From: Deinococcus radiodurans R1 = ATCC 13939 = DSM 20539
GTDB taxonomy: Bacteria; Deinococcota; Deinococci; Deinococcales; Deinococcaceae
Assembly: GCF_000008565.1 (NCBI RefSeq)
Contig: NC_000958.1
Location: forward strand, 60,001-92,000
Direction of reading: 5' to 3'
DNA: 32,000 bases
Made by a program: the position numbers and the translations under genes
Part shown: positions 13,006 through 31,010 of the stretch, one piece after another
Layout of the letters: each line of letters begins with the position of its first letter
Numbering within the stretch: the stretch's first letter is position 1
The notes under the pieces: model-generated
The model's input: only the letters and a program-made list of their open reading frames with translations
What the model was told of the DNA's origin: nothing
Databases searched by the model: none

Positions 13006-13009
13006 GGCT

Positions 13010-13336
13010 TCAGTAGAAGACGAAGCCCTCGGCAGCCAGGGCGGCGGACGGTGCGGCCACGTACTCGTTCAGCGTGCCGCCCTGTGGGTTGGCGGTGGCC
13101 CGCTGGAACTGCCACGGAGCCGCCGGGATACGCGCCGCCACCTCGGGGAGGGCCAGCGGGGAGGCCGGCGTGAAGCCCGAGGTACACAGCAGCGTCAGAT
13201 GTGCCTCACTGACCGCCTGCACCTGGCAACTTTCCGCCACGCTGACGCTCAGGTTCAAAGTGACCGAAGCGGCCTGCGCGTGAAAAGCGGTGAGCACCAT
13301 CAACCAGAAGCCAGCCCGTTGTGCAGTCGAGAACAT
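13010..13336 (-). CDS. Small secreted SCPU-like protein, convergent with the usher gene
   Basis: It has a signal peptide (FWLMVLTAFHAQA/AS), then VTLNLSVSVAESCQV ... LLCTSG (a beta-strand-plus-Cys pattern like SCPU subunits). It has a strong GGAGGAG Shine-Dalgarno. Its stop lies only 4 nt from the usher stop. Confidence 0.55.
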   Translation of the reverse strand: MFSTAQRAGFWLMVLTAFHAQAASVTLNLSVSVAESCQVQAVSEAHLTLLCTSGFTPASPLALPEVAARIPAAPWQFQRATANPQGGTLNEYVAAPSAALAAEGFVFY

Positions 13337-13539
13337 GTATGACTCCTCCAGGGGCGGCGCTCGATAGGCCGGCCCCGACTGTGGAGCACGTTAATCGGGC
13401 GAGTCTTTCGGGAAGCTTTCAGGGCGAAGGATGAAGGCCTAAGCCGGGTTCCGAGCGGCTAGTCTTCAGGGATGGGATGCGGAAAACAAGTGACGCAGAC
13501 ATGAGTTGTGCCTTGTCCCAACGGGACCGCAATGGCGAG

Positions 13540-13572
13540 GCCCACACCAGTGCGAGATGCCAAGGTGTGGGC
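13540..13572. repeat. 9-bp perfect inverted repeat (hairpin) downstream of the 1145-aa lipoprotein gene
   Basis: GCCCACACC (13540-13548) pairs with GGTGTGGGC (13564-13572) across a 15-nt loop. There is no U-tract on the minus strand, so terminator function is uncertain. Confidence 0.3.
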
Positions 13573-13684
13573 GGAGCCAGAAGCGTCAAAGAGTTCCAAT
13601 CACTTCGTTGGTTGCGTCGCTGACCAGGATTTTTCTTCAGCAGCGAGGTCAGTCAAGAAATGCTGGCGATTGGAGCGAAATGAA

Positions 13685-16600: not shown

Positions 16601-17071
16601 GCCGTCAAAATGCTTGACGTCCTTGAAATAGGTCGCGCCGACCGTAGGAGAGATGGTTGGCGTCGCGCCCGCCACCGCGTCGGTATCCAGGGGAACGAGT
16701 CCCAGATTGGTGATGGTCTGGGCCGACGTGTTCGTGACGTGGTAGGTCACGCGAACGAACCACTGTCCGTCCTGATGCAGCGTCCCCGAGGAGACGTAGC
16801 TGAAGGCCAGCTGGTTGTCCACCAAGCGGGTGGCCTGCGCGCTCAACTGGCCGGGCACCGAAATCGAGGACGTGACCGGGCCGCCCTGACCGTCGCGGCG
16901 GAATTGAAGTTCGTACAGTTGCCCCACCCGTGTTCTGGCCTGGGGAGCCGGACTGGCCGCTGAATGTTCCGGTTTGGCCGGCGAGCTGGGCAGTGGTTGT
17001 CCGCAGCCGGCCATCATCAGGCTGAGCATCAGGGGCAGGGCACACAGGGCGAGCTTCGGGGGTTTGGGCAT
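13685..17071 (-). CDS. Large multi-domain surface/secreted lipoprotein: shared N-terminal domain, phytase-like/beta-propeller-like region, Big_2 Ig-like domain and a C-terminal beta-propeller-like region
   Basis: I prefer the start at ATG 17071 (AAGGAG 8 nt upstream) over the track TTG at 17122. It has a lipobox, LSLMMAG/C. The N-terminal roughly 210 aa are paralogous to the N-termini of 18759-21962 and 22675-25335 (motifs PLDTD, F-K-x-V-x-H-F-D-G-S-D-A, DPFFYTVVFTAV). The Big_2-like segment is VSNLSVTPDNSTLPVGGTQTFKAIY...VTLTATV. Confidence 0.85.
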   Translation of the reverse strand: MPKPPKLALCALPLMLSLMMAGCGQPLPSSPAKPEHSAASPAPQARTRVGQLYELQFRRDGQGGPVTSSISVPGQLSAQATRLVDNQLAFSYVSSGTLHQDGQWFVRVTYHVTNTSAQTITNLGLVPLDTDAVAGATPTISPTVGATYFKDVKHFDGSDAADQAASLVPGQARDASGQVDTAATPYQPIDTAGQTIALPAGLQLGRGGLSPSGWQTSGVLAPGASTDVTFATQMPATSGTTDPFFYTVVFTAVGSVDVPVTLTPTPGANSKVKLPASSPAYVSGTLGDPTDPASVQGLTFTVADSDADAAGLTVTATSSNPSVGAATLSGSGKTRLLKISPRQTGYADITVTVADGDRASASYVVHYAASQAAGTTSSTRFFSGASNASSAQEVGDGYMVVADDEFNVLSLYPQATSSAPVAQFDFSSLMNLTDTANPEMDLEASARLGNRIFWMGSQSNSKSGKARPNRNRVFATDLQGSGAAATLNFVGSYDHLRDDLLAWDRANGNALGLGASAASGVIPEADGGVGYNIEGLAFKPGSSVAYLGFRAPLEPSGTRNAALIVPVTNFTELVTGTARTATFGAPVQLDLGGRGIRELKCNDQGCLILAGPASGGSSFALYSWNGQSNGAAHLRNDLQALATSMDGSLESIVTMPAGNPDSDALTGQPVQVLTDNGDSVYYGDGKIAKDLVAPAQDWQKFRAETVIVGALPAQTCTVSNLSVTPDNSTLPVGGTQTFKAIYTTSPPNCAVNVSWSSSDPSKLTVDERGVARAEAAGTVTLTATVTPGSGAPVSASTGVTVSAPVTSLPNVAVYRVGDGSAKLTSAATPVFVDIINPNDGSLVRTLSLPTSTSGSNRPLLASGTASSEGMLTRSADAHYLVLTGYAASVGLANVKASDSATTPRVIGRLDSAGTVDTTTTLPDAYSGDNIRSAASTDGRSFYVTGGNSGVRLYALGASSGLSISSAASNLRQLGIFGDQLYVSSGSGNGTKGLLSVGNGLPTTGNQTVSRLPGLSDSVTGDSYGFFWADLDGLPGADTLYIADATSGLQKFSLQNGTWVASGVASGSYIGLAGVQQGNTVTLLATNAGSLVKLTDTSGFLKSLSGTPTLLSPAKANTALRGVALAPLP

Positions 17072-17181
17072 TCTCTGATCTCCTTGAGGTCTTTCAGGCG
17101 TCTGGCCGTCAAAGGTGGTCAAGGTAGATCTCCGGTGTCAGCTGGCTGTCGGCGTGCTGGAGAGAGCTGGTTGAACGTGAT

Positions 17182-18498
17182 TTATTCAGGCACCCGGAAG
17201 GACTCGGTAAACCGCTGACGCACCAGCGGCTCGCCGTAGCTCTCCATCACGCCGCGGTCGTCTTCGACCCAGGCGTGCCCCGTCAGGCCGGTCGGGGTCC
17301 GGGCCACGCCGCTGACGAATACGGCGGGGTGGCCGTAGCGGCGCAGTGCCCGGTAGGTTGCCGTCGCTCGCGGGACGCACACGCCGCGCCGGGACTGCCG
17401 GGGATAGAGCAGCCGCGTCCACCAGTTCACCGCGCCGATCAGGTCGTTCTGGGCACTCAGGCTGAGGCGGCCTGAGACCGGCTGGCCCCAGGGCCGCAGG
17501 GCCGCGCGGGGGTCTCCGCCCTGTCGTCCGACCCGGGCCGCCGCATACACGTCCGGCAGCAGCCGCAGCATCCAGACGGCGCGGCGGGGGGCGTTGCGGA
17601 GCCGGGCACGCCAGAGCAGAGCACGGTGGTCTCGTCCGTCGCGCCGCGCGGCGTCCAGGAGGACAGGCAAGCGACCCTGCAAGGCGCTCGCCAACTCCGG
17701 GCCAGCGGGCTGACAGACCCTGAGAAAGGCCGCCCAGGTCTGGCTGACCCCGAGTTCCTGCGCCCGCCGCGCCAGCGCCTCATCGGTCAACCGGTGCCGT
17801 TCGCGCAACACCTGCAAGTCAGGAACATCGGCGGGCTTCAGTCCCCCCGCGTCGCCCCCCCAGCAGCGGCTGACGGCCAGCGTCAGCACCGCGCGGTCGG
17901 CGGGGGAGGGGAGCAAGACAGGCACGCCGGCCCAATCGGTCGGCACCGCCGAGGCCCACATCTGCCGGGTGAGCGCCTGCATCCTTTCTTGCGGCCCTAC
18001 CTCCCAGGTCGTGACGAAGCGGTGAACGTCGAGCTTGGCCTGCCCACTCGGGCTCACGAGGTGCGCGCATTCATGCGTCCAGGTGGACGGACTGGCGTGC
18101 TGACCGTCACTGCGCCAGCCGTGGGCCAGCGCGAGGTGAACGGCGCGGCTGATGAGGTCGGGGTCATTCGGCAGCAGCAGGTCCAAGTCGCCGTAAAAGC
18201 GCTCGGCGGGGGTCGCGTAGTCGAATTCGGCCAGCGCGAAGCCCTTGAACAGCAGGGCCGGCACCCCGGCATCGGCCCAGAGCTGCAACAGGGGCCGGAC
18301 CTCGCTTTTGATGAGGGCGTGGCGCGCGGCGAGCTGCACGGCGTCCATTTTCAGCGCACCGCGCAGTGGGTGGCCCTGCGGCAAGCGCGGGCGGAGGTAC
18401 CCCCCCAGATGGAGCTGGCGCAGGGTGGGGAGGTCGTCCGCGGTGACCTCGCTGGGCGCAGCGAAGGTCCGTCGCAGCACTTCGGACAGGGAATCCAT
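17182..18498 (-). CDS. Fusion protein: NTP_transf_5 (uncharacterised nucleotidyltransferase) domain plus lasso-peptide B2-type transglutaminase-like cysteine protease domain
   Basis: The N-terminal part has AGVPALLFKGFALAEFDYATPAERFYGDLDLLLPNDPD, the K-G ... R ... D-x-D-L-L pattern of NTP_transf_5. The C-terminal roughly 90 aa, RRGVCVPRATATYRALRRYGHPAVFVSGVARTPTGLTGHAWVEDDRGV, shows the Cys ... His-A-W-V-E ... Asp pattern of B2 leader peptidases. The longest ORF reaches 18606, but its first codons overlap the RBS and start of the divergent peptide gene, so ATG 18498 (MDSLSEVLRR...) is preferred. Confidence 0.85.
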   Translation of the reverse strand: MDSLSEVLRRTFAAPSEVTADDLPTLRQLHLGGYLRPRLPQGHPLRGALKMDAVQLAARHALIKSEVRPLLQLWADAGVPALLFKGFALAEFDYATPAERFYGDLDLLLPNDPDLISRAVHLALAHGWRSDGQHASPSTWTHECAHLVSPSGQAKLDVHRFVTTWEVGPQERMQALTRQMWASAVPTDWAGVPVLLPSPADRAVLTLAVSRCWGGDAGGLKPADVPDLQVLRERHRLTDEALARRAQELGVSQTWAAFLRVCQPAGPELASALQGRLPVLLDAARRDGRDHRALLWRARLRNAPRRAVWMLRLLPDVYAAARVGRQGGDPRAALRPWGQPVSGRLSLSAQNDLIGAVNWWTRLLYPRQSRRGVCVPRATATYRALRRYGHPAVFVSGVARTPTGLTGHAWVEDDRGVMESYGEPLVRQRFTESFRVPE

Positions 18499-18591
18499 AG
18501 GCGCCCAGTACAGCACGCGCAGAGCGTCATGAGAGAACCTTGCACTTCCCTGACGATTTGAGGGTAAGCTGGCGCAGCCCTTCATCTTCTT

Positions 18592-18597
18592 AAGGAG
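18592..18597 (+). promoter_or_regulatory. Shine-Dalgarno (AAGGAG) of the 54-aa peptide gene
   Basis: AAGGAG lies 7 nt upstream of the ATG at 18605. Confidence 0.7.
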
Positions 18598-18604
18598 TTT
18601 ATAC

Positions 18605-18769
18605 ATGTCAGAACATTGTCAGAAGACTGCTGTTAAGCCTGAACCCCGCCCCTACCAGGCCCCTGCCGTGCAGGACCTCGGCCCCTGGAAGGCCATGACC
18701 CTGATTTACAGCCTGCCCATCGGCCCCGGCGGCTCCCGTCCTACTGGTGGTAACAGCAATGTCTGGTAA
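18605..18769 (+). CDS. 54-aa precursor-like peptide with a lasso-type leader motif (paralogue 1)
   Basis: It is not in the ORF track because it is under 60 aa. The sequence is MSEHCQKTAVKPEPRPYQAPAVQDLGPWKAMTLIYSLPIGPGGSRPTGGNSNVW*. It has a strong RBS. A 27-residue block is shared with the peptide at 22448-22633, with many synonymous codon differences (Ser AGC vs TCT, Leu CTG vs TTG, Gly GGC vs GGT/GGG). The block fits Y-x2-P-x-[LIV]-x3-G-x5-T-x. Confidence 0.8.
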   Translation: MSEHCQKTAVKPEPRPYQAPAVQDLGPWKAMTLIYSLPIGPGGSRPTGGNSNVW

Positions 18770-21700
18770 GCGCGCCGCCAATGCCCTCTTGCTGGCTGGC
18801 CTTCTGGCCCTGAGTGCCTGCGGAAGCCAGCAGCCTGCGGGCACAGGCGCGGCGGTGCCTGCCCCAGGGCCCGTGACCAGCGGTACTTCCCGCAGCAGCC
18901 TCGGCGTGTACCAGCTCAGCCTCAGCGGGGCGGGCAGCGCCATCAAGCAGGCCAGCGTGCAGCGCTTGGGCGCTCAGGCGACTGAAGTGGGCGGCCTGAG
19001 CTTCAAGAGCAACAACTACGGCTACTACGTCGACAGCTCGAACAACACCCTGCGGATGTGGGCGACGTTCGACGTGACCAACACCAGTGACCAGCCCCTC
19101 GCCGCGCCGACCTTCATTCCGGTCGACACCGAAGGCGCGGGCGGGACCATCGGCACCACGGCGTTCAAGAACGTGCGCTACTTCGACGGCAGCGATGCTT
19201 CGAGCCGCGCGCCGCTGCTGGCCTTCGACTCGTCGAACGACCCCAAGACGGCGGTCAAGACTCAGCTGCTCCGTGACCTCGACAGCGGCAGCGTGCAGGT
19301 CAACCTGCCTGCGGGCCTGCAACTCGCCGGCACCTCGCACACCGGCTGGAAGATGGGCGCCCTGCCGGCGGGCGCGACCGGGCAGGTCACCCTCGCCGCG
19401 AGCATTCCAGCGGCCAGCAACTCTCAGGACAACCCCTTTTCGTTCGACCTGGTCTTCACCGTGGCCGACAACGTGCCCAGCACCACGCTGACCAACATCG
19501 GTGCGGTTCAGGGCCAGACCCCCGGCGGCGACCGGCCCGCAGCCTTGACCGGCGCGCAGACCATCGAAGGCGTCGTGACAGCGGTCGAGCCTGGTCTGAG
19601 CGGCTTTTTCGTGCAGGAAGAGGGCATCGACGCCGACAGGGACGAGACCACCAGCGACGGCCTGTTCGTCTACTGCGCGGCGAGTTGCCCGGCGCTCAGC
19701 GCGGGCGACCGCGTGCGGGTCAGCGGCACGGTGGCCGAATACGGCGGCGCCACCCAGATGACGGCGCCCACCGTGACCAAACTGCTTTCCGGCCTGGCGC
19801 TGCCGCCTGCCGCCGAGCTGAAGCTGCCGCTCGACAAGACGCAACAGGAGCGTTATGAGGGCATGCGCGTGCGCTTCCCCGAAACGCTGACCATCACCAA
19901 CAACTACACCTATGGCCGCTACGGGCAACTCGACCTATCGAACGCCGGGCGCATGTTCAATCCCACCAACGGGAACGCCAGCGCCAGCGAGCAGAGTACC
20001 ATCACACTCGATGACGGCGTCAGCGCACAAAACCCGCTGGACCTGAACTACCTCAGCGCCGAGCGGACCCGCCGCACGGGCGACACGGTCACCGGCCTGA
20101 GCGGCGTGTGGCATTCGGTTGCCAATCAGCCCATGCTGGAGCCGGAGGGAGCGGTCGAGTTCGTCTCCGCCAACAGCCGCGCCAGCAACGCCCTGCCGCA
20201 TGACGTCGGTGGCAGCCTGCGGGTGGGCGGTGCCAACGTCCTGAACTACTTCACGACTTACGGCGGCAGCACGGACCGCGGCGCAAACAACGCCGGTGAG
20301 CTGGCCCGGCAACGCGCCAAGATGGCGACCACGCTGACCACCCTGAACGCCGACGTGCTGTCGCTGATGGAAGTGCAGAACAATGGTGATACGGCGCTCA
20401 ACGACCTTGTCGCGGCGCTCAATGAGAAAGCCGGCGCCGGGACCTACGCCGCCGTGACGACGGGCTCCGTCGGTACCGACGCCATCAAAGTCGCCATCAT
20501 CTACAAGCCGTCTAAGGTCACGCCGGTCGGCCAGTTCATGACCGACAACAACTCTGTCTTCTCGCGCCCGCCCGTCGCCCAGACGTTCCGTGACAAGACC
20601 ACGGGCGGCGTCTTCAGCGTGATCGCCAACCACCTCAAGAGCAAAGGCAGCTGCCCCACGTCCGGCGACGTGGACACGGGCCAGGGCTGCTGGAATCAAC
20701 TGCGCGTGCGGCAGGCTCAGGCGCTGCTGGGCTTCGTCGATACCGTGAAGCAAAAAAGCGGCGACCAGGACGTCTTGCTGCTGGGGGATTTCAATGCCTA
20801 CGGCGCGGAAGACCCCATCAAAGTGCTGCAAGGCGGCGGATTCGAGAGCCTGAACCTGCGTATTCCCGCAGAAGACCGTTACAGCTACCAGTTCAATGGC
20901 CTGTTCGGTTACCTTGACCACGCGCTGGCGAGCCAGAACCTCAGCGCTCAAGTGAGCGGCATCACCGAGTGGCACGTCAACAGCGACGAGCCGGTTATCG
21001 CCGACTACAACACCGAGTTCAAGAAGGTTGCGGGCTGCACTGGAACCAACTGCACGGGCATCGATCTGTTCGACCCGACCAATCCCTTCCGCGCCAGCGA
21101 CCACGACCCGGTGCTTGTCGGCCTGAACCTGACCGCCGACGCAGGGACCACTCCCACTCCGGCACCGACCACGGCGCTGAGCGCCAACCCCAGCGCCCTG
21201 ACGGTGACGGCGGGCGGCGCAGCCGTGAGCAGCACCCTGACGACCAGCACCCAGAACTACAGTGGCGCCGACTTCACCGTCAGCACCCAGAACAGCGCGG
21301 GTCTGACGGTCGCGCCCTCGGCGACTTCGGTGAGCCCCAACGGGACGTTCACCGTGAGCGTCACGGCGCCTGCGGGCACGGCAGCCGGAACGTACCCGGT
21401 GACGGTGACGACCACAGGTGCAGGTGGCCTGACGGCGACTGCGACCCTCAACGTCACGGTGAGCGTAGGCGGTACTCCTCCCCCCAGCTCGACTGGCAGT
21501 GATCTGATTATCAGCGAGTACGTCGAAGGAACCAGTAATAACAAAGCATTGGAGTTCTACAATCCGACAGCAAACACTCTTGATTTGAGTGCTTATACGG
21601 TCGAACTGTATGCCAACGGCGCGACGAAGGCCACAAATACACAGAAGCTCACTGGGAGCCTGGCTCCTGGCGCTGTCTTGGTCCTGGTCAACGGTTCTGC

Positions 21701-21962
21701 TGTACCTGAGCTCAAAGCCAGGGGAACTGTCAGTAGTGTGACCAATTTCAATGGTGATGACGCCATTGTGCTGAAAAAGAGTGGCGTGGTCATCGATTCG
21801 TTTGGTCAGGTCGGGGTACAGAGCATGTGGGGCGCGGACGTTACTCTGCGCCGTAAGAGTGGCATCGTTTCAGGCGATAGCAACCCGAATGATCCCTTTA
21901 GCGCAGCGACCGAGTGGGACAGTTTTCCAGTTGACACTTTCGATGGACTTGGAAGCCGCTAA
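18759..21962 (+). CDS. ExeM/NucH-type extracellular nuclease lipoprotein (shared N-terminal domain, OB-like domain, endonuclease/exonuclease/phosphatase domain, Ig-like repeats, lamin-tail domain)
   Basis: It has a lipobox, LLALSA/C. The NucH-type segment is IEGVVTAVEPGLSGFFVQEEG...DGLFVY...GDRVRVSGTVAEYGGATQM. EEP motifs are GGANVLNYF, SLMEVQNN, LLGDFNAY, YLDHALAS and RASDHDPVLVGL. The C-terminal lamin-tail domain is DLIISEYVEGTSNNKALEFYNPT. The ATG at 18759 (track GTG 18747) overlaps the upstream peptide gene by 11 nt. Confidence 0.9.
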   Translation: MSGKRAANALLLAGLLALSACGSQQPAGTGAAVPAPGPVTSGTSRSSLGVYQLSLSGAGSAIKQASVQRLGAQATEVGGLSFKSNNYGYYVDSSNNTLRMWATFDVTNTSDQPLAAPTFIPVDTEGAGGTIGTTAFKNVRYFDGSDASSRAPLLAFDSSNDPKTAVKTQLLRDLDSGSVQVNLPAGLQLAGTSHTGWKMGALPAGATGQVTLAASIPAASNSQDNPFSFDLVFTVADNVPSTTLTNIGAVQGQTPGGDRPAALTGAQTIEGVVTAVEPGLSGFFVQEEGIDADRDETTSDGLFVYCAASCPALSAGDRVRVSGTVAEYGGATQMTAPTVTKLLSGLALPPAAELKLPLDKTQQERYEGMRVRFPETLTITNNYTYGRYGQLDLSNAGRMFNPTNGNASASEQSTITLDDGVSAQNPLDLNYLSAERTRRTGDTVTGLSGVWHSVANQPMLEPEGAVEFVSANSRASNALPHDVGGSLRVGGANVLNYFTTYGGSTDRGANNAGELARQRAKMATTLTTLNADVLSLMEVQNNGDTALNDLVAALNEKAGAGTYAAVTTGSVGTDAIKVAIIYKPSKVTPVGQFMTDNNSVFSRPPVAQTFRDKTTGGVFSVIANHLKSKGSCPTSGDVDTGQGCWNQLRVRQAQALLGFVDTVKQKSGDQDVLLLGDFNAYGAEDPIKVLQGGGFESLNLRIPAEDRYSYQFNGLFGYLDHALASQNLSAQVSGITEWHVNSDEPVIADYNTEFKKVAGCTGTNCTGIDLFDPTNPFRASDHDPVLVGLNLTADAGTTPTPAPTTALSANPSALTVTAGGAAVSSTLTTSTQNYSGADFTVSTQNSAGLTVAPSATSVSPNGTFTVSVTAPAGTAAGTYPVTVTTTGAGGLTATATLNVTVSVGGTPPPSSTGSDLIISEYVEGTSNNKALEFYNPTANTLDLSAYTVELYANGATKATNTQKLTGSLAPGAVLVLVNGSAVPELKARGTVSSVTNFNGDDAIVLKKSGVVIDSFGQVGVQSMWGADVTLRRKSGIVSGDSNPNDPFSAATEWDSFPVDTFDGLGSR

Positions 21963-21989
21963 AAACCAAAGTTGAGCTTGAAGGCTTGA

Positions 21990-22020
21990 GCTGCCCAGTC
22001 TTAGACCGGGCAGCTTTTTT
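21990..22020 (+). terminator. Rho-independent terminator after the nuclease gene
   Basis: GCTGCCC (21990-21996) pairs with GGGCAGC (22008-22014) across an 11-nt loop, followed by TTTTTT (22015-22020). Confidence 0.8.
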
Positions 22021-22447
22021 GCGTCCTTATAGTCCATCTCCTTGGCTTAACCTTTCCCTCCGGCCAGCCTTCTTTTCTCTGTTAGCCCCCAAACAGTCAA
22101 ATTGTTGGTGAGTTCAGCTTGAGAATGTCTAGACAAATACTTTTAAGAAACTTTTCTCATACGGCTGTCAGGATGCTGTGACAAATATCGTTTGGAAAGT
22201 GTTGGGTCTTCAGAAAACATACATGTAAACTTCTTGATAAAGTTCATCAATTTTACTCCTCAACTCTTTGCTTGGAAGTTACATCTATACACCCAGGCCA
22301 TTTATCTGTTCCCATTTTTCACATATAGTAAATAAGTCGGAAAATTTAATCGGCTTCTGTGCCCCGCGAAGGCGCAAAAAGCTTATCTGGCCTCGGCTTA
22401 CTGAGGAGGTCGGGTCTGTCTTTTTATTCCCGCAACTTGGATCAGTT

Positions 22448-22633
22448 ATGCAAATAAGTGAAGCTAAGCCGCAAGCAAACTTCTCAGAGGAAGCTGAGAA
22501 AACCAGTCTTGCCAGTAAGTACGAAGCCCCTCAAATAAAGGATCTGGGCAGCTGGAAAACCATGACCTTGCTTTACTCTCTCCCTATCGGCCCTGGTGGG
22601 AGAAGCACACATCAAGACGGCCCATTGTATTAA
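22448..22633 (+). CDS. 61-aa precursor-like peptide with a lasso-type leader motif (paralogue 2)
   Basis: The sequence is MQISEAKPQANFSEEAEKTSLASKYEAPQIKDLGSWKTMTLLYSLPIGPGGRSTHQDGPLY*. It is the in-frame ATG portion of track ORF 22268-22633. It shares the block Y-[QE]-A-P-x-[VI]-x-D-L-G-x-W-K-x-M-T-L-[IL]-Y-S-L-P-I-G-P-G-G with the peptide at 18605-18769. Its RBS is weak. Confidence 0.7.
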   Translation: MQISEAKPQANFSEEAEKTSLASKYEAPQIKDLGSWKTMTLLYSLPIGPGGRSTHQDGPLY

Positions 22634-22674
22634 AAACCGTTCATCTTACAAGTTGTGATGTTTCGAGGATATAA

Positions 22675-25335
22675 ATGAAAGTGTCCAGATCTTTAGTTCT
22701 TTTGGGTCTTCTGACGTTGGCTGCCTGCGGTTCTACCCCTGGCAACACTTCTCCCCAGCCTTCGCCGATCGTAGCTCCTGCAAGGCAGTTACAGAGCTTT
22801 GGATTGTATGAATTGAGTGTCAATGGCGCTACGACTGCGGCGCCTGAGAGCAGAATTTTCAGGACTGGTCTGAGCTCTCAAACTAACGATATTCAAGGGC
22901 TTAAATTTACTCCTTTGTCGACGGGAACATACACCGATGAGTTGAGCCGCACACGTTATTTGCGCGCTTCGTTTAAGGTGAGTAACGAAACTGGACAACC
23001 CTTAACGGTTCCCACCTATGTCCCTGTCGATACGGATGGAAACGACGCTACTGTGGGGGCAACTCCATTTAAAGCGGTGCAGTACTTTGACGGGAGCGAT
23101 GCCAGCTCAAGAGCCTTAGAATTGCAGCTGGATACAGCACATCGGTTTAATAGTGCTACTGGCGCCAATGAAATAGATCTGGACGCTACCCCCCTAGTGA
23201 CCAAGCTTGATACCCGTGATCTGGTCATAAACCCGCCGCCTGGGACCACAATCGCACAGGTCTTTCATCAGGGCTGGCAAGGGCGACAGTTGGCTCCTGG
23301 AGGAACCCAGGTCGTCACTTTCGCTGCCCGACTGCCTATGGCTGCTGATTCAAAGCTAGATCCCTTTAGATTTAAGCTGATGTTTGCAGTGACAGATAAT
23401 CCTGCGCCTTTGCCTGATGATCAGATAGCACCAACAGTATCACTGACATTAGATCCCATCGAGTTGACGTCGGCAGGCTCCGTCACTTTTCGCGCCGCCG
23501 CTGAAGACAATGTCGGCATCCGGGACGTTACTTTTTATGATGGTGACAAACTCCTAGGGACTGTTACCGAGGCGCCTTATGAGTGGAAGTCCGCTTATAC
23601 AGCTGCCGATAACGGAGAGCACGTCATTCGTGCGGTTGCTACGGACACCAGTGGAAATACCGCGCAAACGACCAGTAGACTAAATATTAAAATCTCTACA
23701 GCAAATGTTCCATTTATTGGGAGTGGCCCGGCTGGTTTGATGGTCGATCTGATTCGTTCGAACCGTGGCGAAGGAGTCAGCGATTCTACAGTTCGTATCT
23801 ATCATAGTGGTGATCGCACAAAGGTGTTGGCTGAGACTCAAACTGATAAGAGTGGTTTTACTCAATTTCTGAATATTCCAGAAGGAACCTACGACTTAGT
23901 TTTCAGTAAAGCTAATGCGGCAGGTTCGGAATTTAATGGTGCAGTTGCAAAAGCGGGCGTCAATCAACGCCTCAAGATTGCCCAGTTTGATGCTCAGAAC
24001 CCTACAGCCGGGAAAGCAACGGCCAAGCTGGCTGTCCTGACGCCTACTGCCCTTGCTGCGGATGGAACTGCTGTGGATTGGAAAGTGCTGACTCCCGGCA
24101 CTGTAATGAACAACGATATTCAACTGAGGGCTTACACAACCGCTGAAAACCCAGCTCCACTTCAGCTCAAGTACCTGATGTTTTCGGTCGTGAATTTCGA
24201 TGCCACTGGGCAGATGACCGAACTGCGCAGTGCGCTGGCCAGTATTGATGCTGGCAAAGTGAATCCGGGCATGGAAAGTCAGGACAGCGGTCTGATGACG
24301 CTCGACACAGCCGGGCTTCAAGGCGATATTTATGTACAGGTCTCTTCGCTGGATTTTAATAACAACCGTTCGGCTTATTTGATCCCGGTTCGCCTTGAGC
24401 GGAGCAGTGCGCCCGGTGCTGTGACAGCGCCCACTGGAGTAAGCGCTATCGCCTATACCAACGGTGAACGCATCAACTACATTTATGGAGTCACTGACCC
24501 CAGCACTCAAGGAGAAGGTAAAAATATTTTCCCGGACACGAACAGCTGGGTGAGCGTGTCCTGGGATATGCCGAGTACCACTGCTGGCTTGACTGGCTTC
24601 CGCGTTCTGCGCGCGGTGGCGCCGCAAGGTCCATACAGTGAAGTGGCGTTTGCTGGTGTAGCGCAGTGCCGCACTTCGACCAAGCGTTGCACGGCCAGCG
24701 ATAATACTGCCACTCTGCAAGTCGGTCAGGACTATTACTACCGGGTTAAAGCTATCGGAAGTAACGAAGCCTTGAGTGCTACGCCATCACAGGCCAGCAC
24801 GCGGATTTTGCCTCCGTTTAAGCCACAGCTCCTCAGTCCGGGTTCGGAGCAGACGGATGTCAGTCTCCTCCCTGAGTACACGTTTAAGACCAATGCTTTT
24901 GAGGGTGGCGCCACGGGGCTGCGCTTTGATCTGCGCGTCAGCGACGCTTTTACTTCCGTCGGCAATACGGACGCGCCGCCCCTGCGCATTGTGGGCCAGG
25001 GCGGGACCTTCAAGGTGATCGGCGCCGATAACGACACCCGGGATTACGCCAAGTGGGTAACCTATGACGTGGCGAGTGACGTGGTCAAAGTCCCTCACGA
25101 CCTCACCCGGGTGCGCTCTGGCCTGGCGCCACAGCCGCTCCAGACGAATCGGCGGTACTCGTGGATGCTTCACCGCGCTTATACCTACCGTCTCCTTGAT
25201 CCAACTTTGCCGGAATCGACCACCAACCCTGTCGTGGCTTACTCGGTGTATAGCGACCCGGACACCACCAAGATTGTTCCCGGCGGCGTCACGCAGAGTG
25301 TCAGCACTGTCTACCACTTCATTACCCGGCCCTGA
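22675..25335 (+). CDS. 886-aa multi-domain lipoprotein (shared N-terminal domain, bacterial Ig-like domain, carboxypeptidase-regulatory-like domain, FN3-like domain, unknown C-terminal region)
   Basis: It has a lipobox, LLTLAA/C, and a GAGGA Shine-Dalgarno. Its N-terminal domain is paralogous to the other two lipoproteins (PVDTDG, F-K-A-V-Q-Y-F-D-G-S-D-A-S-S-R-A, DPFRFKLMFAVTDN). The Ig-like segment is APTVSLTLDP...AAAEDNVGIRDVTFYDGDKLLGT...PYEW...VIRAVATDTSGNT. Confidence 0.85.
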   Translation: MKVSRSLVLLGLLTLAACGSTPGNTSPQPSPIVAPARQLQSFGLYELSVNGATTAAPESRIFRTGLSSQTNDIQGLKFTPLSTGTYTDELSRTRYLRASFKVSNETGQPLTVPTYVPVDTDGNDATVGATPFKAVQYFDGSDASSRALELQLDTAHRFNSATGANEIDLDATPLVTKLDTRDLVINPPPGTTIAQVFHQGWQGRQLAPGGTQVVTFAARLPMAADSKLDPFRFKLMFAVTDNPAPLPDDQIAPTVSLTLDPIELTSAGSVTFRAAAEDNVGIRDVTFYDGDKLLGTVTEAPYEWKSAYTAADNGEHVIRAVATDTSGNTAQTTSRLNIKISTANVPFIGSGPAGLMVDLIRSNRGEGVSDSTVRIYHSGDRTKVLAETQTDKSGFTQFLNIPEGTYDLVFSKANAAGSEFNGAVAKAGVNQRLKIAQFDAQNPTAGKATAKLAVLTPTALAADGTAVDWKVLTPGTVMNNDIQLRAYTTAENPAPLQLKYLMFSVVNFDATGQMTELRSALASIDAGKVNPGMESQDSGLMTLDTAGLQGDIYVQVSSLDFNNNRSAYLIPVRLERSSAPGAVTAPTGVSAIAYTNGERINYIYGVTDPSTQGEGKNIFPDTNSWVSVSWDMPSTTAGLTGFRVLRAVAPQGPYSEVAFAGVAQCRTSTKRCTASDNTATLQVGQDYYYRVKAIGSNEALSATPSQASTRILPPFKPQLLSPGSEQTDVSLLPEYTFKTNAFEGGATGLRFDLRVSDAFTSVGNTDAPPLRIVGQGGTFKVIGADNDTRDYAKWVTYDVASDVVKVPHDLTRVRSGLAPQPLQTNRRYSWMLHRAYTYRLLDPTLPESTTNPVVAYSVYSDPDTTKIVPGGVTQSVSTVYHFITRP

Positions 25336-25352
25336 ATCCAAGGAGCATTTCT

Positions 25353-27587
25353 ATGAAAAGACTTTCTCTCGCGGCGCTCAGTCTTACTGTTCTTCTGGCG
25401 GCTTGCCAGCAGCAGAGCACCGTTGTCAATCCCCGCCCACCAGTGACCTCTTCACCGATGCAGGCCGGTGGCATTCCTACCCCTGACATTGATCCAGCGC
25501 GCATTATCCTCGACCCAAACAGCGGGGCCCAGTATGTCAGCGATCAATTGGTCGTCGGCCTGGGCGGGCTGGACTCCACAACCCTGGCAGCCCAGCTGGG
25601 GGCGACCGTCATAGACCGTTTGCCGCAGCTTGACGCTGTGGTGCTTCACCTCAGTGATGGAAGTGCTTTGCAAAAAGCCAGGCAGCTCAATGAAGAAGGC
25701 CGTGTCACGTTCGCAGCTCCCCAGCAAATTATGCAGATGGAACCCTATACGAAAAGTATTCGGGAGCCTGCATTATCGCCGCTGGCGGTCAATCAAGTGT
25801 TCGACGCTCTGCCGCAGTACGCATTGGATAGCGAGCATCTCAATGCCAAAGCAGCCTGGGACGCCGGCTTTACGGGACGTGGCGTGACTGTCGGAGTGAT
25901 TGACGATCCTGTTGATGTTTCACACCCTGACTTGCGAGCCAACTGGGCTGGGAAAGCGTACGATCCGAAGGCCGACAAGACCTATACGACAGTGCAAAGT
26001 TGGCTTGATGCGATTGATGCTTTCGGTTCAGTGCCGATGCCTGTAGACAATCAGGTGGACGAGAACATTGAGCACGGTACTGCCGTCACCTCCACTATCG
26101 CTGCCGCTCGTGATGGGCGAGGGGTCGTTGGAGTGGCGCCGGATGCCAAGTACCTCACGGCGGCCATGTTTCAGCCGGGGAGCGTCGGCTCTGCTGGTGT
26201 GGCGAAGGCCATCTTATGGATGGTAGATAATGGAGCAAAAGTCCTGAACAATTCCTGGGGCGGCGCTGGCTTTGACCCCCTGATCAAGGCTGCAATGGAC
26301 TACGCTCTGGAACGAAACGTCACTGTGGTAGTTTCCGCTGGCAATGAATCGCGTGAATATTATCAGCGGCCAGCGCTTTTTGCGGGGGTTATTCCTTCTG
26401 CGGCCCTGGCTGTCAATAATACTAAAGCGAGTTTCTCTTCTTTCGGGCGCCATATCAGTGTGGCTGCGCCTGGGACAGACATCCTCATGGCCTCACCGCT
26501 GTTCATTAATGACGATGGAACACGCAAATTGGGTGCCACTCCTCCAGATGGCAGTGGCTACGTCCTGATGAGTGGAACTTCCTTCTCTGGACCTTATACG
26601 GCAGCTACGGCAGCTCTGATTCTAGGTGCCCACCCAGAGCTCGACCCCTATCAAGTGCGGCGGCTGATGGAAGAGACGGCTGACGGAAGCGTCGGCGAAA
26701 ACCCCAATGGTTTTGACCGGGGGACAGGGTATGGCCGCATTCAACTGGGAGAACTGGCTCAACGTCTCCAAAGCGGTCCTATGCCGGCAAAAGGCGGCGC
26801 CCTTAAGGTACTGGTGCAATTTAAGAAAAGCGACGGCACCTTCGTGACTCAGACCCAGCCTTCAGACGTGATTATTGAAAAAGACGGTGAAAATGGGGCG
26901 ATTTACGGGGCGCAGACCAATGCCAAAGGTTTGGTCCAGTTCGCGGCGATGGCGCCTGGAACCTATACTCTTCGGGTGGGTGGCCCTGATCTGAAGGCTG
27001 ACACAGCGCTAAAGGAGCGAGGCAGTTATACGGGCAAAGTCACTATCACGTCCGGTACGACGTTGGCTGACGCCGAACCGATCGTGGTGACACTGGATAA
27101 AGGGTTCTATGAGCCCCCACCTCCTGTGGTCGATCCCTATGAGCCGAACGACAGTCTTGAAACGGCAACTCAAATTTCGATTGGTATGCGCACGCAGCCG
27201 GCGCTCATTTATAGGGAGAGCTGCTCTTCTTCCTGTACGCCAGTCAATGGAGATGTCGACTTTTACAAATTCAGCGGTACTGCTGGGCAAACTGTAGAAG
27301 TGGCTCTCTTTGATAAATATCACCCCACCGAAAAGATAGGCAATATGTGGGGAGTAATATACATTCGTGATTCAACCGGCAATCTTCTTAAGGATTCCGC
27401 TGGGAAAGTCATCCAACCGGGAATCGTTGACAACAAATTTACAGCTAAGCTGCCTACAGATGGGACCTACTATTTACAGGCTGGAACCTATCTCCATCTG
27501 AATCCGACCCAGGGAGAAAAGCCTTACACAGGAGGCTTTACAAATAGTAAGGATAACAAATATTTTATAGAACTGAAACTCAAATGA
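25353..27587 (+). CDS. S8 (subtilisin-family) serine protease lipoprotein with C-terminal PPC (pre-peptidase C-terminal) domain
   Basis: It has a lipobox, VLLAA/C, and an AAGGAG Shine-Dalgarno. Catalytic motifs are VGVIDDPVD (Asp), EHGTAVTSTIAA (His), NNSWGG and MSGTSFSGPYTAATAALIL (Ser). The PPC-like tail is YEPNDSLETAT...GDVDFYKFSGTAGQTVEV. Confidence 0.9.
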   Translation: MKRLSLAALSLTVLLAACQQQSTVVNPRPPVTSSPMQAGGIPTPDIDPARIILDPNSGAQYVSDQLVVGLGGLDSTTLAAQLGATVIDRLPQLDAVVLHLSDGSALQKARQLNEEGRVTFAAPQQIMQMEPYTKSIREPALSPLAVNQVFDALPQYALDSEHLNAKAAWDAGFTGRGVTVGVIDDPVDVSHPDLRANWAGKAYDPKADKTYTTVQSWLDAIDAFGSVPMPVDNQVDENIEHGTAVTSTIAAARDGRGVVGVAPDAKYLTAAMFQPGSVGSAGVAKAILWMVDNGAKVLNNSWGGAGFDPLIKAAMDYALERNVTVVVSAGNESREYYQRPALFAGVIPSAALAVNNTKASFSSFGRHISVAAPGTDILMASPLFINDDGTRKLGATPPDGSGYVLMSGTSFSGPYTAATAALILGAHPELDPYQVRRLMEETADGSVGENPNGFDRGTGYGRIQLGELAQRLQSGPMPAKGGALKVLVQFKKSDGTFVTQTQPSDVIIEKDGENGAIYGAQTNAKGLVQFAAMAPGTYTLRVGGPDLKADTALKERGSYTGKVTITSGTTLADAEPIVVTLDKGFYEPPPPVVDPYEPNDSLETATQISIGMRTQPALIYRESCSSSCTPVNGDVDFYKFSGTAGQTVEVALFDKYHPTEKIGNMWGVIYIRDSTGNLLKDSAGKVIQPGIVDNKFTAKLPTDGTYYLQAGTYLHLNPTQGEKPYTGGFTNSKDNKYFIELKLK

Positions 27588-27602
27588 CTTGAAAAATAAT
27601 AC

Positions 27603-27640
27603 AGCTGGTTGAACCTAAAAGTTCAACCAGCTTGTTTTTT
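27603..27640. terminator. Strong hairpin between convergent genes (bidirectional terminator candidate)
   Basis: AGCTGGTTGAAC (27603-27614) pairs with GTTCAACCAGCT (27621-27632) across a 6-nt loop. It is followed by TGTTTTTT (to 27640) and preceded by an A-rich tract. It overlaps the last codons of the minus-strand kinase gene. Confidence 0.75.
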
Positions 27641-28486
27641 AAGTAGCATTTCCTCTGTTTGCTCTATAACTTTTTCCCGCGTCGTTCCCTGCACGGTCAG
27701 TCGGCGCAGCAGCTCATTTACCGCCTGAGCGCTGGCCTGCCGGGTGCGCGCCAGCAGCGGCACGCCAGTGCATTCCCAAAGTGCCTGTACGCTGTCCGCT
27801 CGTGAAGGGTGGTGCGGCAGGCCAAAAACGAGCAGGGTGTCTAGAGTCGCAGGCGTCGTTGGTGGCGTGAGGGGCACCATCCATTTGCCGTAGGCGTCTT
27901 GCCCCTGCGCGGCGGCCCGGAGCCCCGGAGCGAAGCGGTCCAGACTGTCCGGGTAGGTTCGCAGGAAGCGGTCGAGTCCCAGCACCCGTCCTGACCCGGC
28001 GTGCACCCAGGTCTGGTCCTCGGCAAGCACGCTCAGGCCCGCTGCCGCCAGCCGCAGGGCCGCCGTGCTTTTGCCCGCGCCGCTTACGCCCGTGATGCCT
28101 ACCGCCCTACTTTCTCGCGCCACCGTCGCGGCGTGCAGGGGCAGCCAGCCGCTCAGGCGCTGCAACTCGGCCAGGGCCAGCAGCCAGGCAGCTTCAGAGG
28201 GAGCAGCCAGATGGACCGTCAGGCGCGGCGCGGCGGCGAGTTGCAAATGTAAGTGGTTCCCCAGCCACAGCTCGTCTCCCTGTGCCCAGATGTCGAGGAC
28301 TGTGTTGGAAACCATGATCTGCTGGGCGGGCACGTCCGGTTGGGGCGGTAACTCCCCAGGAAAACACATCACTTTGAGGGGCGTGTCCACCAGAGACACC
28401 GTTTGCCAGCGCTCCTGCAACTGCCGCTCCAGTTCAGTGGGTAAGCGTGCAGTCTCTAAGTCCAGCCCCAGCGAAAGCCAGGTCAC
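27623..28486 (-). CDS. HPr-kinase-like (HprK C-terminal domain-related) P-loop kinase of the kind found in lasso/RiPP clusters
   Basis: 287 aa with the Walker A segment GITGVSGAGKSTAALRLAAAGLSVLAEDQTWV. Its GTG start overlaps the stop of the upstream PqqD-like gene (GTGA), which suggests translational coupling. Confidence 0.8.
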   Translation of the reverse strand: MTWLSLGLDLETARLPTELERQLQERWQTVSLVDTPLKVMCFPGELPPQPDVPAQQIMVSNTVLDIWAQGDELWLGNHLHLQLAAAPRLTVHLAAPSEAAWLLALAELQRLSGWLPLHAATVARESRAVGITGVSGAGKSTAALRLAAAGLSVLAEDQTWVHAGSGRVLGLDRFLRTYPDSLDRFAPGLRAAAQGQDAYGKWMVPLTPPTTPATLDTLLVFGLPHHPSRADSVQALWECTGVPLLARTRQASAQAVNELLRRLTVQGTTREKVIEQTEEMLLKKQAG

Positions 28487-28734
28487 GACGGCTGCACGAG
28501 GCCGCGCTCGGCCAGAGCCGCCATCAAGCTCTGCACGTCGCGCAGGGCGTCTGCCGGCGCGAGGTCATAGGTGCGGGCCAGCAGCTCGCCCAGGGCCGTC
28601 TCGTCGGCGGGCAACGCGTTCCAGAGCAGTCTGCCGGTTTCGTTCAGGCTGAACATCACGCTGCGCACCGGCTCCATCAAAACGAGTTCGTCGCCGAGGT
28701 CGGTGGTCAGGACAGCCGAGTTGGGTTCCCACAT
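28483..28734 (-). CDS. PqqD-family protein (lasso B1 / RiPP recognition element)
   Basis: 83 aa: ...LGDELVLMEPVRSVMFSLNETGRLLWNALPADETALGELLARTYDLAPADALRDVQSLMAALAERGLV. This is the typical PqqD pattern (x-L-N-x-T-G ... W ... L ... D-V ... F/L ... L ... G-L). Confidence 0.85.
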   Translation of the reverse strand: MWEPNSAVLTTDLGDELVLMEPVRSVMFSLNETGRLLWNALPADETALGELLARTYDLAPADALRDVQSLMAALAERGLVQPS

Positions 28735-28740
28735 GCGGGC

Positions 28741-28746
28741 ATCATA
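28741..28746 (-). promoter_or_regulatory. -10-like box (TATGAT on the minus strand) 6 nt upstream of the PqqD-like start codon; candidate leaderless promoter
   Basis: The plus strand reads ATCATA at 28741-28746, GCGGGC at 28735-28740 and the start codon CAT at 28732-28734. There is no Shine-Dalgarno and no convincing -35. Confidence 0.35.
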
Positions 28747-28824
28747 GCGAGCGGGGTAAAAAAGCGCCGGAAAAGCCGTTGCTCTGGCTGAGCTGACAAG
28801 GCTCGAAAAGGGAAGCCGTCGGGG

Positions 28825-29199
28825 TCAACGCAGCGGCGCAAGCAGCGCATCATAGCTGAACACCCACTCCGGGTCCGTCGGCGTCCGCATCCAGCTGTTT
28901 TCGGAAGACACTTTTTGGACCTGCGCCACCCGCTCCGCCCGCGTCTGCTGGTAGTGGTCGTAGGCCGCCCCGGCAGCGGCACCGTACGCCCGCAAGCAGC
29001 GCACCAGCACCGCCGCGTCTTCGATGGCCATCGCCGCGCCCTGCGCCATGTGGGGCCGCATGGGGTGCCCGGCGTCACCCAGCAGCACCAGCGGCCCCCG
29101 GCTCCAGGTGGTGTCCGGCTCACGCTCGTGCAGCGGCCAGAGGCACACTTCCTTGGCGGCCTGCAAAATGGCCCGCGCCTCGGCGGGAACTTCATTCAG
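28825..29199 (-). pseudogene. C-terminal fragment of an FAD-dependent aromatic-ring monooxygenase (salicylate-hydroxylase-like)
   Basis: It contains the conserved C-terminal FAD motif LLGDAGHPMRPHMAQGAAMAIEDAAVL, but the N-terminal roughly 250 aa (GxGxxG Rossmann part) are absent. The homologous frame runs up to an in-frame stop at 29200-29202, 11 nt from the fruA stop. Confidence 0.7.
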
Positions 29200-29213
29200 T
29201 TAATTGCTGTGGG

Positions 29214-31010
<1,797 letters not shown>

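Follow-up and report, generated by a model that had tools for sequence, protein, structure and literature searches.

Classes of RiPPs (peptides synthesized ribosomally and then modified post-translationally) are defined by their class-defining enzyme, and the rules used to mine genomes for lasso peptides require the cyclase. The subject of this work is a RiPP-like gene system in a 32,000-nucleotide stretch of Deinococcus radiodurans R1 (contig NC_000958.1, positions 60,001 to 92,000). This whole stretch is called the window below, and its own numbering is used throughout. The closest described relatives of the system are the lasso clusters of the paeninodin/pseudomycoidin type. In these, the HPr-kinase homologues PadeK and PsmK phosphorylate the linear precursor, and the nucleotidyltransferase PsmN adds one or two hexoses to the phosphate in a DxD-dependent manner (PMC8498205, PMC6993621). 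PsmN activity has never been reconstituted in vitro (PMC6993621). The nucleotidyltransferase (N) is sometimes fused to the B2 protease, and the combination of kinase, nucleotidyltransferase, B1 and B2 is known from clusters of this type (PMC8498205, PMC6993621).

The system in the window resembles the clusters for paeninodin (pade) and pseudomycoidin (psmCAKB1B2ND), as well as proteobacterial kinase-type clusters such as the plasmid-borne one of Paracoccus sp. MC1862 (L038 in our numbering of loci), in its YxxPxLx3Gx5Tx leader and its split B1/B2 pair. It also shares with them an HPr-kinase-like kinase (K), and its NTP_transf_5-type nucleotidyltransferase, which has a DxD motif, may correspond to PsmN. 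Unlike these clusters, the Deinococcus system has neither the cyclase C nor a conserved ABC exporter D, the N-terminus of its peptide cores is conserved (xxS[LV]PxxPG), and the peptide gene is coupled to a lipoprotein gene. The pairing of an HPr-kinase-like P-loop protein with a small PqqD-family protein encoded beside it recalls the SynChlorMet cassette (ScmC/ScmD; seen in our locus L032), which, in contrast, uses radical-SAM enzymes and not B2 plus a nucleotidyltransferase. In the RRE-Finder survey, about half of the lasso-type RiPP recognition elements (RREs) had no canonical partners and were treated as possible false positives (PMC7470986). The present architecture is not described in that survey and differs from such orphan elements: it keeps a B2 peptidase and a canonical leader, and the one missing part is the cyclase.

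We consider it fairly likely that the locus encodes a cyclase-independent, lasso-derived system for maturing ribosomal peptides, and its best reading is as a descendant of the paeninodin/pseudomycoidin-type pathways. The product is probably a linear peptide, freed of its leader and phosphorylated, perhaps glycosylated as well. The initial annotation had proposed a candidate new RiPP-like system. Searching the literature for this architecture, PF14907 and lasso systems that lack a cyclase turned up no description of it, which agrees with that proposal; the enzyme combination, including the N–B2 fusion, was already known, which does not. Since the enzyme set is not new, what is novel is that the cyclase has been lost, that the substrates form a new family and that there is a link to lipoproteins. 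The system is best described as a new arrangement built from known parts.

Precursor Peptides and Their Cores

Two paralogous precursor peptides are encoded on the forward strand. A1 (54 aa, 18605–18769; RefSeq WP_166466122.1; family hidden Markov model (HMM) E=1e-22) is preceded by a strong ribosome-binding site, AAGGAG, 7 nt upstream. Its leader ends in ...YQAPAVQDLGPWKAMTL and its predicted core is IYSLPIGPGGSRPTGGNSNVW. A2 (61 aa, 22448–22633; family HMM E=4e-21) is unannotated; its leader ends in ...YEAPQIKDLGSWKTMTL, its predicted core is LYSLPIGPGGRSTHQDGPLY, and an ortholog, IYSVPMGPGGRSTSPGSQTF, is present in Deinococcus sp. VB343. Both leaders follow the pattern Y-x-x-P-x-[VI]-x3-G-x5-T-L. 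The lasso leader motif YxxPxLx3Gx5Tx, with Thr at position −2, is found in both window peptides and in 20 homologues. As a regular expression (YxxPx[LVI]x3Gx5Tx followed by a short tail), the leader has three matches in the window, where 300 Markov simulations gave 0.007 on average, which bears out the earlier claim of two paralogous peptides with a lasso leader motif. The third match is the C-terminus of the B2 domain (17182–17337, reverse strand), where YGHPAVFVSGVARTPTG is followed by a 34-aa tail. It is incidental, in our view a coincidence in a conserved protease motif.

The two window peptides share 27 codons, of which 10 are identical, 10 differ synonymously and 7 differ non-synonymously. 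Within the core there are seven synonymous differences, including a switch of Ser from AGC to TCT, and one non-synonymous difference. As the differences are mostly synonymous in the core, the amino acid sequence of the peptides is under purifying selection. A word-index search with A1 returned only two proteins. We therefore assume that such small open reading frames (ORFs) are mostly uncalled in the databases.

Leader positions Y, P, G, W and T do not vary among the 22 peptides. The cores start with x-x-S-[LVIF]-[PG]-x-x-P-G and diverge after that. Ser occupies core position 3 in 20 of the 22; the exceptions are Deinococcus pimensis, which has Thr, and Meiothermus, in which the Ser is shifted by one. 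Tyr is found at position 2 in half of the aligned cores (10/20).

The cores are incompatible with lasso formation, as the initial annotation had suggested for A1 and A2. Most of them start with Ile, Leu, Thr, Glu, Val or Gln and two with Ala; none starts with Gly, Ser or Cys. An Asp or Glu at positions 7–9 is present in a single core and missing from the other 21, several of which have no acidic residue at all. The combination of a small first residue with an acidic residue at 7–9, on which a lasso ring depends, is therefore not a property of this family. The C-terminal residue is Trp, Tyr, Phe, Asn, Gln, Cys or Ala. Ser, the phosphorylation site of phosphorylated lasso peptides, is not found at the C-terminus of any of the 22. 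The precursor of the Paracoccus cluster (MVKTYSRPVLRVQGQLEAMTH/GNSRGSALDNTFQAGTPVSQLTFS, with the slash at the leader/core junction) has the same leader pattern as the Deinococcus peptides, whereas its core has Gly1, Asp9 and a C-terminal Ser, the three features that the Deinococcus cores lack. Around the junction the sequence reads YSRPVLRVQGQLEAMTH/GNSRGSALD...TFS in Paracoccus and YQAPAVQDLGPWKAMTL/IYSLPIG... in D. radiodurans.

The Enzymes

The components named in the initial annotation, a B1 protein, a kinase, a nucleotidyltransferase fused to B2, and the two peptides, are all present at the coordinates given there, and the catalytic residues of the enzymes are conserved. The fusion protein (17182–18498, reverse strand) has 438 residues and consists of an NTP_transf_5 domain (aa ∼44–263; PF14907, E=4.5e-23) and a lasso-type B2 cysteine protease domain (aa ∼310–433; PF13471 Transglut_core3, E=3.5e-18). 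The B2 part scores 43.1 bits against NF033537 (lasso_biosyn_B2; cut-off 33), and RefSeq labels the protein 'lasso peptide biosynthesis B2 protein'. In an alignment of 14 sequences, residues G86, D104, D106, D157, C374, H408 and E412 are invariant. With 51 sequences, G86, C374, H408 and E412 remain invariant, and D104, D106 and D157 are at least 90% conserved. The protease thus retains the Cys-His-acid triad of lasso B2 proteins (C374/H408/E412). The family has 72 detected members, most of them metagenome sequences; those that carry an organism name are all from Deinococcus.

The AlphaFold2 model of the fusion protein has a predicted local distance difference test score (pLDDT) of 92.4 and a predicted template modeling score of 0.83. 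Foldseek matched the N-terminal half to nucleotidyltransferases of the Pol-beta type (5uvd, E=3e-4; 4wse; 6kal, which is FKRP; the mimivirus poly(A) polymerase; TUT7) and the C-terminal part, weakly, to transglutaminase-like cysteine proteases. A profile search of the Protein Data Bank (PDB) with the fusion family found nothing. The nucleotidyltransferase of the Paracoccus cluster shows no significant BLAST similarity to the corresponding domain of the fusion protein, in which the DxD motif is D104/D106.

The B1 protein (28483–28734, reverse strand; PF05402, E=1.3e-14) belongs to the PqqD family. Its nearest relatives by sequence in the PDB are the lasso B1 proteins TfuB1 (6jx3_B) and TbiB1; its matches to the NCBIfam lasso_PqqD models are weak and below the cut-offs (29.9 vs 70). 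It is a stand-alone PqqD-type RRE, predicted to bind the Y/P/[VLI] part of the leader. Its orthologs adjoin the kinase gene in 21 loci. In the window the end of the B1 gene and the start of the kinase gene overlap by 4 nt, in keeping with the coupling of the two genes described earlier.

The kinase (27623–28486, reverse strand) is the weakest assignment among the enzyme components. Genes for HprK-related kinases A and B (TIGR04352/TIGR04355) occur paired with PqqD-like genes. The window protein matches HprK_rel_B (E=4.6e-8), HprK_rel_A (E=1.1e-7) and ScmC (E=1.6e-5) in the P-loop region only, and its P-loop aligns with that of the HPr kinase structure 1jb1. The motifs LHAA, GxSGxGKST and ED show little or no variation among 22 homologues, so that both the P-loop and the acidic metal-binding pair expected of the kinase of a phosphorylated lasso cluster are in place. 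Over 60 aa, the protein is 35% identical to the kinase of the canonical Paracoccus cluster. The predicted function is phosphorylation of the precursor.

Absence of a Cyclase

Related loci were collected from one representative genome per species (28 loci) and from plasmids (three loci). No ORF of at least 250 aa with an SGGxDS motif is present in the window, and the only one in the related loci (L008:6267–7874) encodes a TilS–deaminase fusion and no cyclase. Among the window ORFs scanned with Pfam, none showed an Asn_synthase domain. With Escherichia coli AsnB as a tblastn query, the best match in the window and the 31 related loci (∼0.6 Mb) had E=1.1. Two real lasso cyclases, used as tblastn and phmmer queries, likewise had no match in the window or the loci (best E 0.3–0.9). 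Two canonical kinase-type lasso clusters on plasmids of Paracoccus sp. MC1862 and Sulfitobacter indolifex, the source of these two query cyclases, served as positive controls. Both control cyclases contain SGGLDS, and the AsnB search finds them at E=1e-5 and 4e-4. With 41 kb of the megaplasmid MP1 included, no Asn-synthetase-like cyclase was detected in the 32-kb window, in MP1 or in the 31 loci. This agrees with the initial annotation, which had seen none in the window, and it answers the question raised there of whether a cyclase ever accompanies the fusion gene: none does in the 31 loci. D. radiodurans has also been reported to lack both AsnA and AsnB (PMC2330236).

Several other candidates were considered and rejected. 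Large ORFs beside the more distant clusters (L029:3–2333, L028:1301–3943 and L031:7726–9498) have no Pfam domain, and genes for PPDK and an aldolase in L030 are unrelated. Among plasmids, the AsnB query matched a genuine asnB of Bacillus thuringiensis and an asnB of Deinococcus ficus that lies ∼30 kb from the peptide operon of that species, beside a glycosyltransferase gene.

As neither a cyclase nor a lasso-competent core nor the C-terminal Ser was found, the system should not be filed as a lasso cluster.

Conservation of the Cassette

Genes for the fusion protein, the kinase and a PqqD protein lie within 10 kb of each other in 21 loci, the window counted, and 18 of these also have a homologous peptide. 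The hosts include Deinococcus antarcticus, D. hohokamensis, D. psychrotolerans, D. wulumuqiensis, D. xinjiangensis, D. petrolearius, D. caeni, D. aquatilis, D. pimensis, Deinococcus sp. VB343 (two loci) and a metagenome-assembled genome (MAG) of Meiothermus. In the latter, the genes for B1, K, the peptide and the lipoprotein form one same-strand row. The catalytic residues of the enzymes are kept at pairwise identities of 33–65% across two families of Deinococcota. D. ficus, D. gobiensis, QL22 and KNUC1210 have further peptides, encoded on plasmids, and the plasmid records with a peptide match number 21, all from Deinococcus. The compact arrangement that had been proposed as ancestral, with the peptide and its lipoprotein gene between the fusion gene and the kinase–B1 pair, does occur as such in several species, D. 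antarcticus, D. psychrotolerans and D. hohokamensis among them. The cassette has no conserved gene for a lyase or for an ATP-grasp, YcaO or radical-SAM protein.

A second type of operon is found behind the peptide gene. It encodes the lipoprotein, a large beta-helix/VcbS protein, two to three tail-collar ('tail fiber') proteins, an SBP-like protein and a GNAT protein, in the same order in QL22, D. aquatilis, D. ficus and D. gobiensis (L002:13349–20562, reverse strand; L007:∼16277–18507, reverse strand; L034:1428–8704; L035:8938–16398).

Lipoproteins and Their Shared N-Terminal Domain

Wherever the ORF downstream of the peptide gene could be assigned (15 loci), it encodes a lipobox protein in all but one (14/15). 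In these 14 loci the two genes abut or overlap, and the lipoprotein has the phylum-specific N-terminal domain treated below. This bears on a check that had been suggested, on whether the shared-domain lipoproteins co-occur. In the window, the ATG of the nuclease gene DRB0067 (18759–21962, forward strand) lies at 18759 and overlaps the 3′ end of the A1 gene by 11 nt. A programmed frameshift joining peptide and lipoprotein was considered. It is rejected because the spacing varies among species, with the lipoprotein start anywhere between 22 nt upstream and ∼100 nt downstream of the peptide stop.

Three lipoproteins of the window have a ∼220-aa N-terminal region in common (tblastn E=1e-37 to 1e-14; 18900–19560 and 22816–23433 on the forward strand, 16310–16966 on the reverse strand). 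The region of the nuclease (aa ∼50–270) matches that of the lipoprotein encoded from 22675 at E=1e-37. In the third lipoprotein (13685–17122, reverse strand) the domain is found at E=1e-18, and orthologs of this third gene adjoin the fusion gene in L012 and L027. The initial annotation had assigned a common N-terminal domain to the secreted lipoprotein enzymes of the locus. This is correct for the nuclease and for the 22675 gene, and not for the S8 protease, in which tblastn did not find the domain. It had also placed the start of the system at the fusion gene. This was too narrow, as the third shared-domain lipoprotein lies just outside that limit and belongs with the system.

No Pfam or NCBIfam model matches the shared domain. 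A word-index search returned four proteins only, whereas a profile search of 1.84 billion representative proteins gave a family of 196 clusters, 107 of them at E≤1e-10. The domain is nearly always located at residues ∼35–280, after the lipobox, the Cys of which is at least 90% conserved in 52 family members. The passenger domains that follow are diverse: nuclease, LTD, DUF3616, polysaccharide lyase 8, amylase, M66, M23, M8 and trypsin peptidases, Vgb-lyase-like and RCC1 domains, and adhesin-like regions. DRB0067 has been reported, from experiments, as the only nuclease that D. radiodurans has outside the cell; it depends on Sec, is attached to the hexagonal surface layer and comes off after irradiation (PMC3554781). 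It has also been reported to affect oxidative-stress resistance and natural transformation. Given the position of the lipobox, the varied passengers and the surface binding of DRB0067, the domain looks like a lineage-specific handle on surface-bound secreted enzymes, probably a Deinococcota-specific tethering or sorting module.

The core start of the peptides, [IL]-Y-S-[LV]-P-[IV]-G, weakly resembles the first predicted strand of this domain, G-[LVM]-Y-[EQ]-L-x-[LVI]. The resemblance, which might reflect strand mimicry, is between 18653–18769 and 18900–18930 of the window and recurs in other loci; the strand of the lipoprotein is poorly placed in the structure model.

Proposed Pathway and Alternative Explanations

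Taking the gene set at face value, the following pathway can be proposed. The PqqD-type B1 would bind the precursors via Tyr-17, Pro-14 and Val/Ile-12 of the leader. The kinase would then phosphorylate a hydroxyl group in the core of the still-linear precursor. Ser3 is the predicted site, since the cores do not end in Ser, the residue known to be targeted, and have no other conserved hydroxyl. The nucleotidyltransferase domain may further decorate this site with a hexose on the phosphate, by analogy with PsmN, or alternatively with a nucleotide directly. The B2 domain of the same fusion protein would cut after Thr(−2)-Leu(−1). Since no macrolactam would be made, the product is expected to be a linear Pro/Gly-rich peptide of ∼20 residues. 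The peptide genes appear to be co-transcribed, and often translationally coupled, with genes for lipoproteins that share the Deinococcota-specific N-terminal module, predicted to be a beta-sandwich. Because this module is found on varied secreted hydrolases, the peptide would most likely act as its partner, in the tethering, release or regulation of surface enzymes, rather than as a free antibiotic. The view that the recognition and cleavage half of lasso biosynthesis was recruited for a linear peptide, put forward in the initial annotation, agrees with the genes, the cores and the synteny; its cleavage and modification steps are predictions.

What is shown is the gene content with its conserved catalytic residues, the leader motif, the lack of a cyclase in all the loci examined, cores unsuited to a lasso, and the synteny with the lipoproteins; leader binding, the sites of cleavage and phosphorylation, the second modification, the biological role and the functional link to the lipoproteins are inferred. 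A number of observations weigh against the pathway. Known lasso kinases modify a C-terminal Ser, and as these cores have none, the target site is a guess. The kinase itself matches the known HprK-related families (TIGR04352/TIGR04355) only weakly, at 31–32 bits against a cut-off of 200, and TIGR04249 (ScmC) at 24 bits against 125, which is too low for membership in any of the three. Neither A1 nor A2 is listed in the supplements of a D. radiodurans small-ORF proteomics data set. The question of whether the peptide always accompanies the fusion gene has a mixed answer. It does so in the 18 cassette loci mentioned, whereas five loci (L019, L020, L021, L023 and L026; match at ∼10001–11300 in each) have the fusion gene alone, with no kinase, PqqD or peptide gene within 10 kb and with genes for an aminotransferase, TerC, SSB and lysine aminomutase as neighbors. 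Conversely, the peptide operons of D. ficus and D. gobiensis have no B1, K or N–B2 gene within 9 kb. No exporter is conserved in the Deinococcus cassette, which makes it hard to explain by which route a peptide processed in the cytoplasm meets lipoproteins exported by Sec. AlphaFold2 modeled the N-terminal domain poorly (pLDDT 59.6), and the Foldseek matches were all generic ones to beta-sandwich or carbohydrate-binding modules (E>1e-3), so that the fold is uninformative and no function can be read from the model. Finally, the cyclase search was confined to the window, the 41 kb of MP1 and the 31 loci with a reach of ∼10 kb.

This last point bears on the explanation that the locus is an ordinary lasso cluster with a cyclase encoded elsewhere and acting in trans. 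Leader, B1 and B2 are all of canonical lasso type, and some tailoring enzymes are known to be encoded apart from their lasso cluster, as is the PAD of citrulassin (PMC8498205). A distant cyclase would, however, have to act on cores with the wrong first residue and, in 21 of 22 cases, without an acidic residue at positions 7–9. It would also have to be missing within ∼10 kb in each of ∼30 loci from ∼20 species, where the detection was validated, and D. radiodurans is reported to have no AsnA or AsnB homologue (PMC2330236). We find this explanation scarcely credible. Nearly as improbable is a decaying remnant of a lasso cluster that lost its cyclase and its function, as might be suspected from the location on a megaplasmid beside an insertion sequence (IS) cluster and a truncated monooxygenase gene, and from the five genomes that keep the fusion gene alone. 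Decay is difficult to reconcile with catalytic residues that are near-invariant in all three enzymes at 33–65% identity, with purifying selection on the peptides, and with synteny and gene overlaps kept in ∼20 species.

Two further explanations accept a functional system and are harder to dismiss. The same machinery might carry out other chemistry, such as direct AMPylation or UMPylation of Tyr2 or Ser3 by the nucleotidyltransferase domain, formation of dehydroalanine via phosphorylation and elimination, or a non-lasso cyclization. The nucleotidyltransferase fold is generic Pol-beta, with RNA nucleotidyltransferases and the phospho-alcohol transferase FKRP among its nearest structures; the activity of PsmN was not reconstituted in vitro (PMC6993621), and half of the aligned cores offer Tyr2. 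The cassette, on the other hand, has no conserved lyase, ATP-grasp, YcaO or radical-SAM gene, and the sole experimental precedent for the kinase/nucleotidyltransferase pair is phosphate followed by hexose. Other chemistry of this kind is possible, at clearly lower probability than the pathway proposed above. The small proteins might instead be intracellular regulators or chaperones of lipoprotein expression or export, themselves controlled by B1, K and B2–N through phosphorylation and cleavage. Such a role would suit the tight translational coupling to the lipoprotein genes, a core N-terminus that is conserved and not hypervariable, the missing exporter, and the peptide–lipoprotein operons found away from the enzymes. 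The variable C-terminal tails and the leader/core architecture are nevertheless typical of RiPP substrates, a related family in MAGs includes an ABC exporter, and the role has no known precedent. We regard it as unlikely, somewhat more so than other chemistry.

The lasso-derived maturation of a linear peptide without a cyclase therefore remains our preferred reading. A more specific form of it, in which a class of linear Ser-phospho(glyco)sylated RiPPs is the dedicated partner (ligand, anchor or release signal) of the hydrolase-tethering N-terminal module, that of DRB0067 included, is a tentative proposal, and the chance that all of it holds is small.

If lasso-type recognition, proteolysis and tailoring are conserved without a ring, B1/B2 can be used as a general module for leader removal, and the system would add a new family of linear modified peptides. 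Mining rules that require a cyclase would be expected to overlook these loci or, like RefSeq, to give them the label 'lasso peptide biosynthesis B2 protein'. The system is present in a genetically tractable organism and directly before DRB0067, which makes the link between a RiPP-like peptide and envelope-bound enzymes testable. Should the product and its link to the lipoprotein module be confirmed, this would be a new RiPP class with an unusual, non-antibiotic role; if the peptide is indeed a partner of the module, a RiPP would have a part in displaying proteins on the surface or releasing them. A further outcome is the definition of an unmodeled family of N-terminal lipoprotein domains with ∼200 sequence clusters.

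Organization of the Locus

The gene order of the window agrees with the RefSeq annotation NZ_CP038993.1 (D. radiodurans R1 megaplasmid MP1), and its fusion protein is 100% identical to the one encoded there. The third lipoprotein gene (RefSeq start 17071), which encodes DUF3616 and Big_2 domains, comes immediately downstream of the fusion gene in the same orientation. DRB0067 is an ExeM/NucH-type extracellular nuclease and lipoprotein (NF033681, E=6e-171) with Exo_endo_phos and LTD domains. Its gene is followed by an intrinsic terminator on the forward strand (21988–22021), read directly as gctgcccagtcttagaccgggcagc and then tttttt. Beyond A2, the forward strand encodes a lipoprotein of the DRA0282 family with Ig-like domains (22675–25335; NF052428, E=8e-151, below the cut-off; Big_7) and an S8 subtilase with a lipobox (25353–27587; Peptidase_S8, E=6e-49; Ig_DR_A0283-like domain, fervidolysin pro-domain and PPC). 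Between the convergent genes of the S8 protease and the kinase there is a bidirectional intrinsic terminator (27603–27632) with a stem of 12–13 bp and T tracts on both strands.

From the nuclease terminator on, the GC content drops from ∼0.65 to 0.45–0.58 (window 22000–27600; replicon ∼67%). This lower-GC block consists of the genes for A2, the DRA0282-family lipoprotein and the S8 protease. An ortholog of the block (peptide, DRA0282-like protein, S8 protease) adjoins the same enzymes on chromosome 2 of Deinococcus sp. VB343 (L005), and the three genes also lie beside the enzymes in L022. Because the VB343 block adjoins the same enzymes, we regard the lower-GC block as a mobile module of the same system and not as foreign cargo.

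The boundaries given in the initial annotation, with unrelated genes on either side, agree with the annotated flanks. On the left is a chaperone-usher-like operon (9058–13005). On the right, a RefSeq coding sequence for a 113-aa C-terminal fragment of an FAD-dependent aromatic monooxygenase (28825–29166, reverse strand) is followed by fructose phosphotransferase system genes. The IS cluster (4173–8919) contains 4–5 transposase genes of the IS630 and ISDra1/IS4 families and sits between dihydroxyacetone kinase genes and the chaperone-usher-like operon. An Rfam scan of 13000–29500 gave no match to RNA elements. A reading of the locus as a defense system was rejected, as PADLOC gave merely a trivial P-loop match and a generic subtilase match.

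Cyclase-Less Systems Beyond Deinococcota

Three loci from high-GC MAGs of uncultured bacteria (L028–L030) encode a PqqD protein, two HprK-like proteins, an ABC exporter, and B2 and NTP_transf_5 proteins that are separate. No Asn_synthase domain was found in these loci. Their peptides are encoded on the forward strand between the two HprK-like genes (L029:3628–3780, L028:6192–6344 and L030:5093–5185). The leader, MKxW[ST]PMKV[ST]VVGxVxEVVL, is related to that of the Deinococcus peptides, and the cores consist of GSGRRSGRG followed by RS, SQ or SK repeats, or of AVGQRSGVPQ. Ser-rich repeat cores beside two kinases fit phosphorylated linear products. This suggests that the cyclase-less design is not confined to one phylum.

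A further locus, from a Binatia MAG (L031:7596–7892, reverse strand, and 9368–11031), has genes for a stand-alone B2, a kinase and a PqqD protein beside that for a 1705-aa DUF11/CARDB protein. A candidate precursor there ends in ...RPYTAPVLERHDEWHLVTG/LNPSIV, with a very short core and an HMM E of only 0.007.

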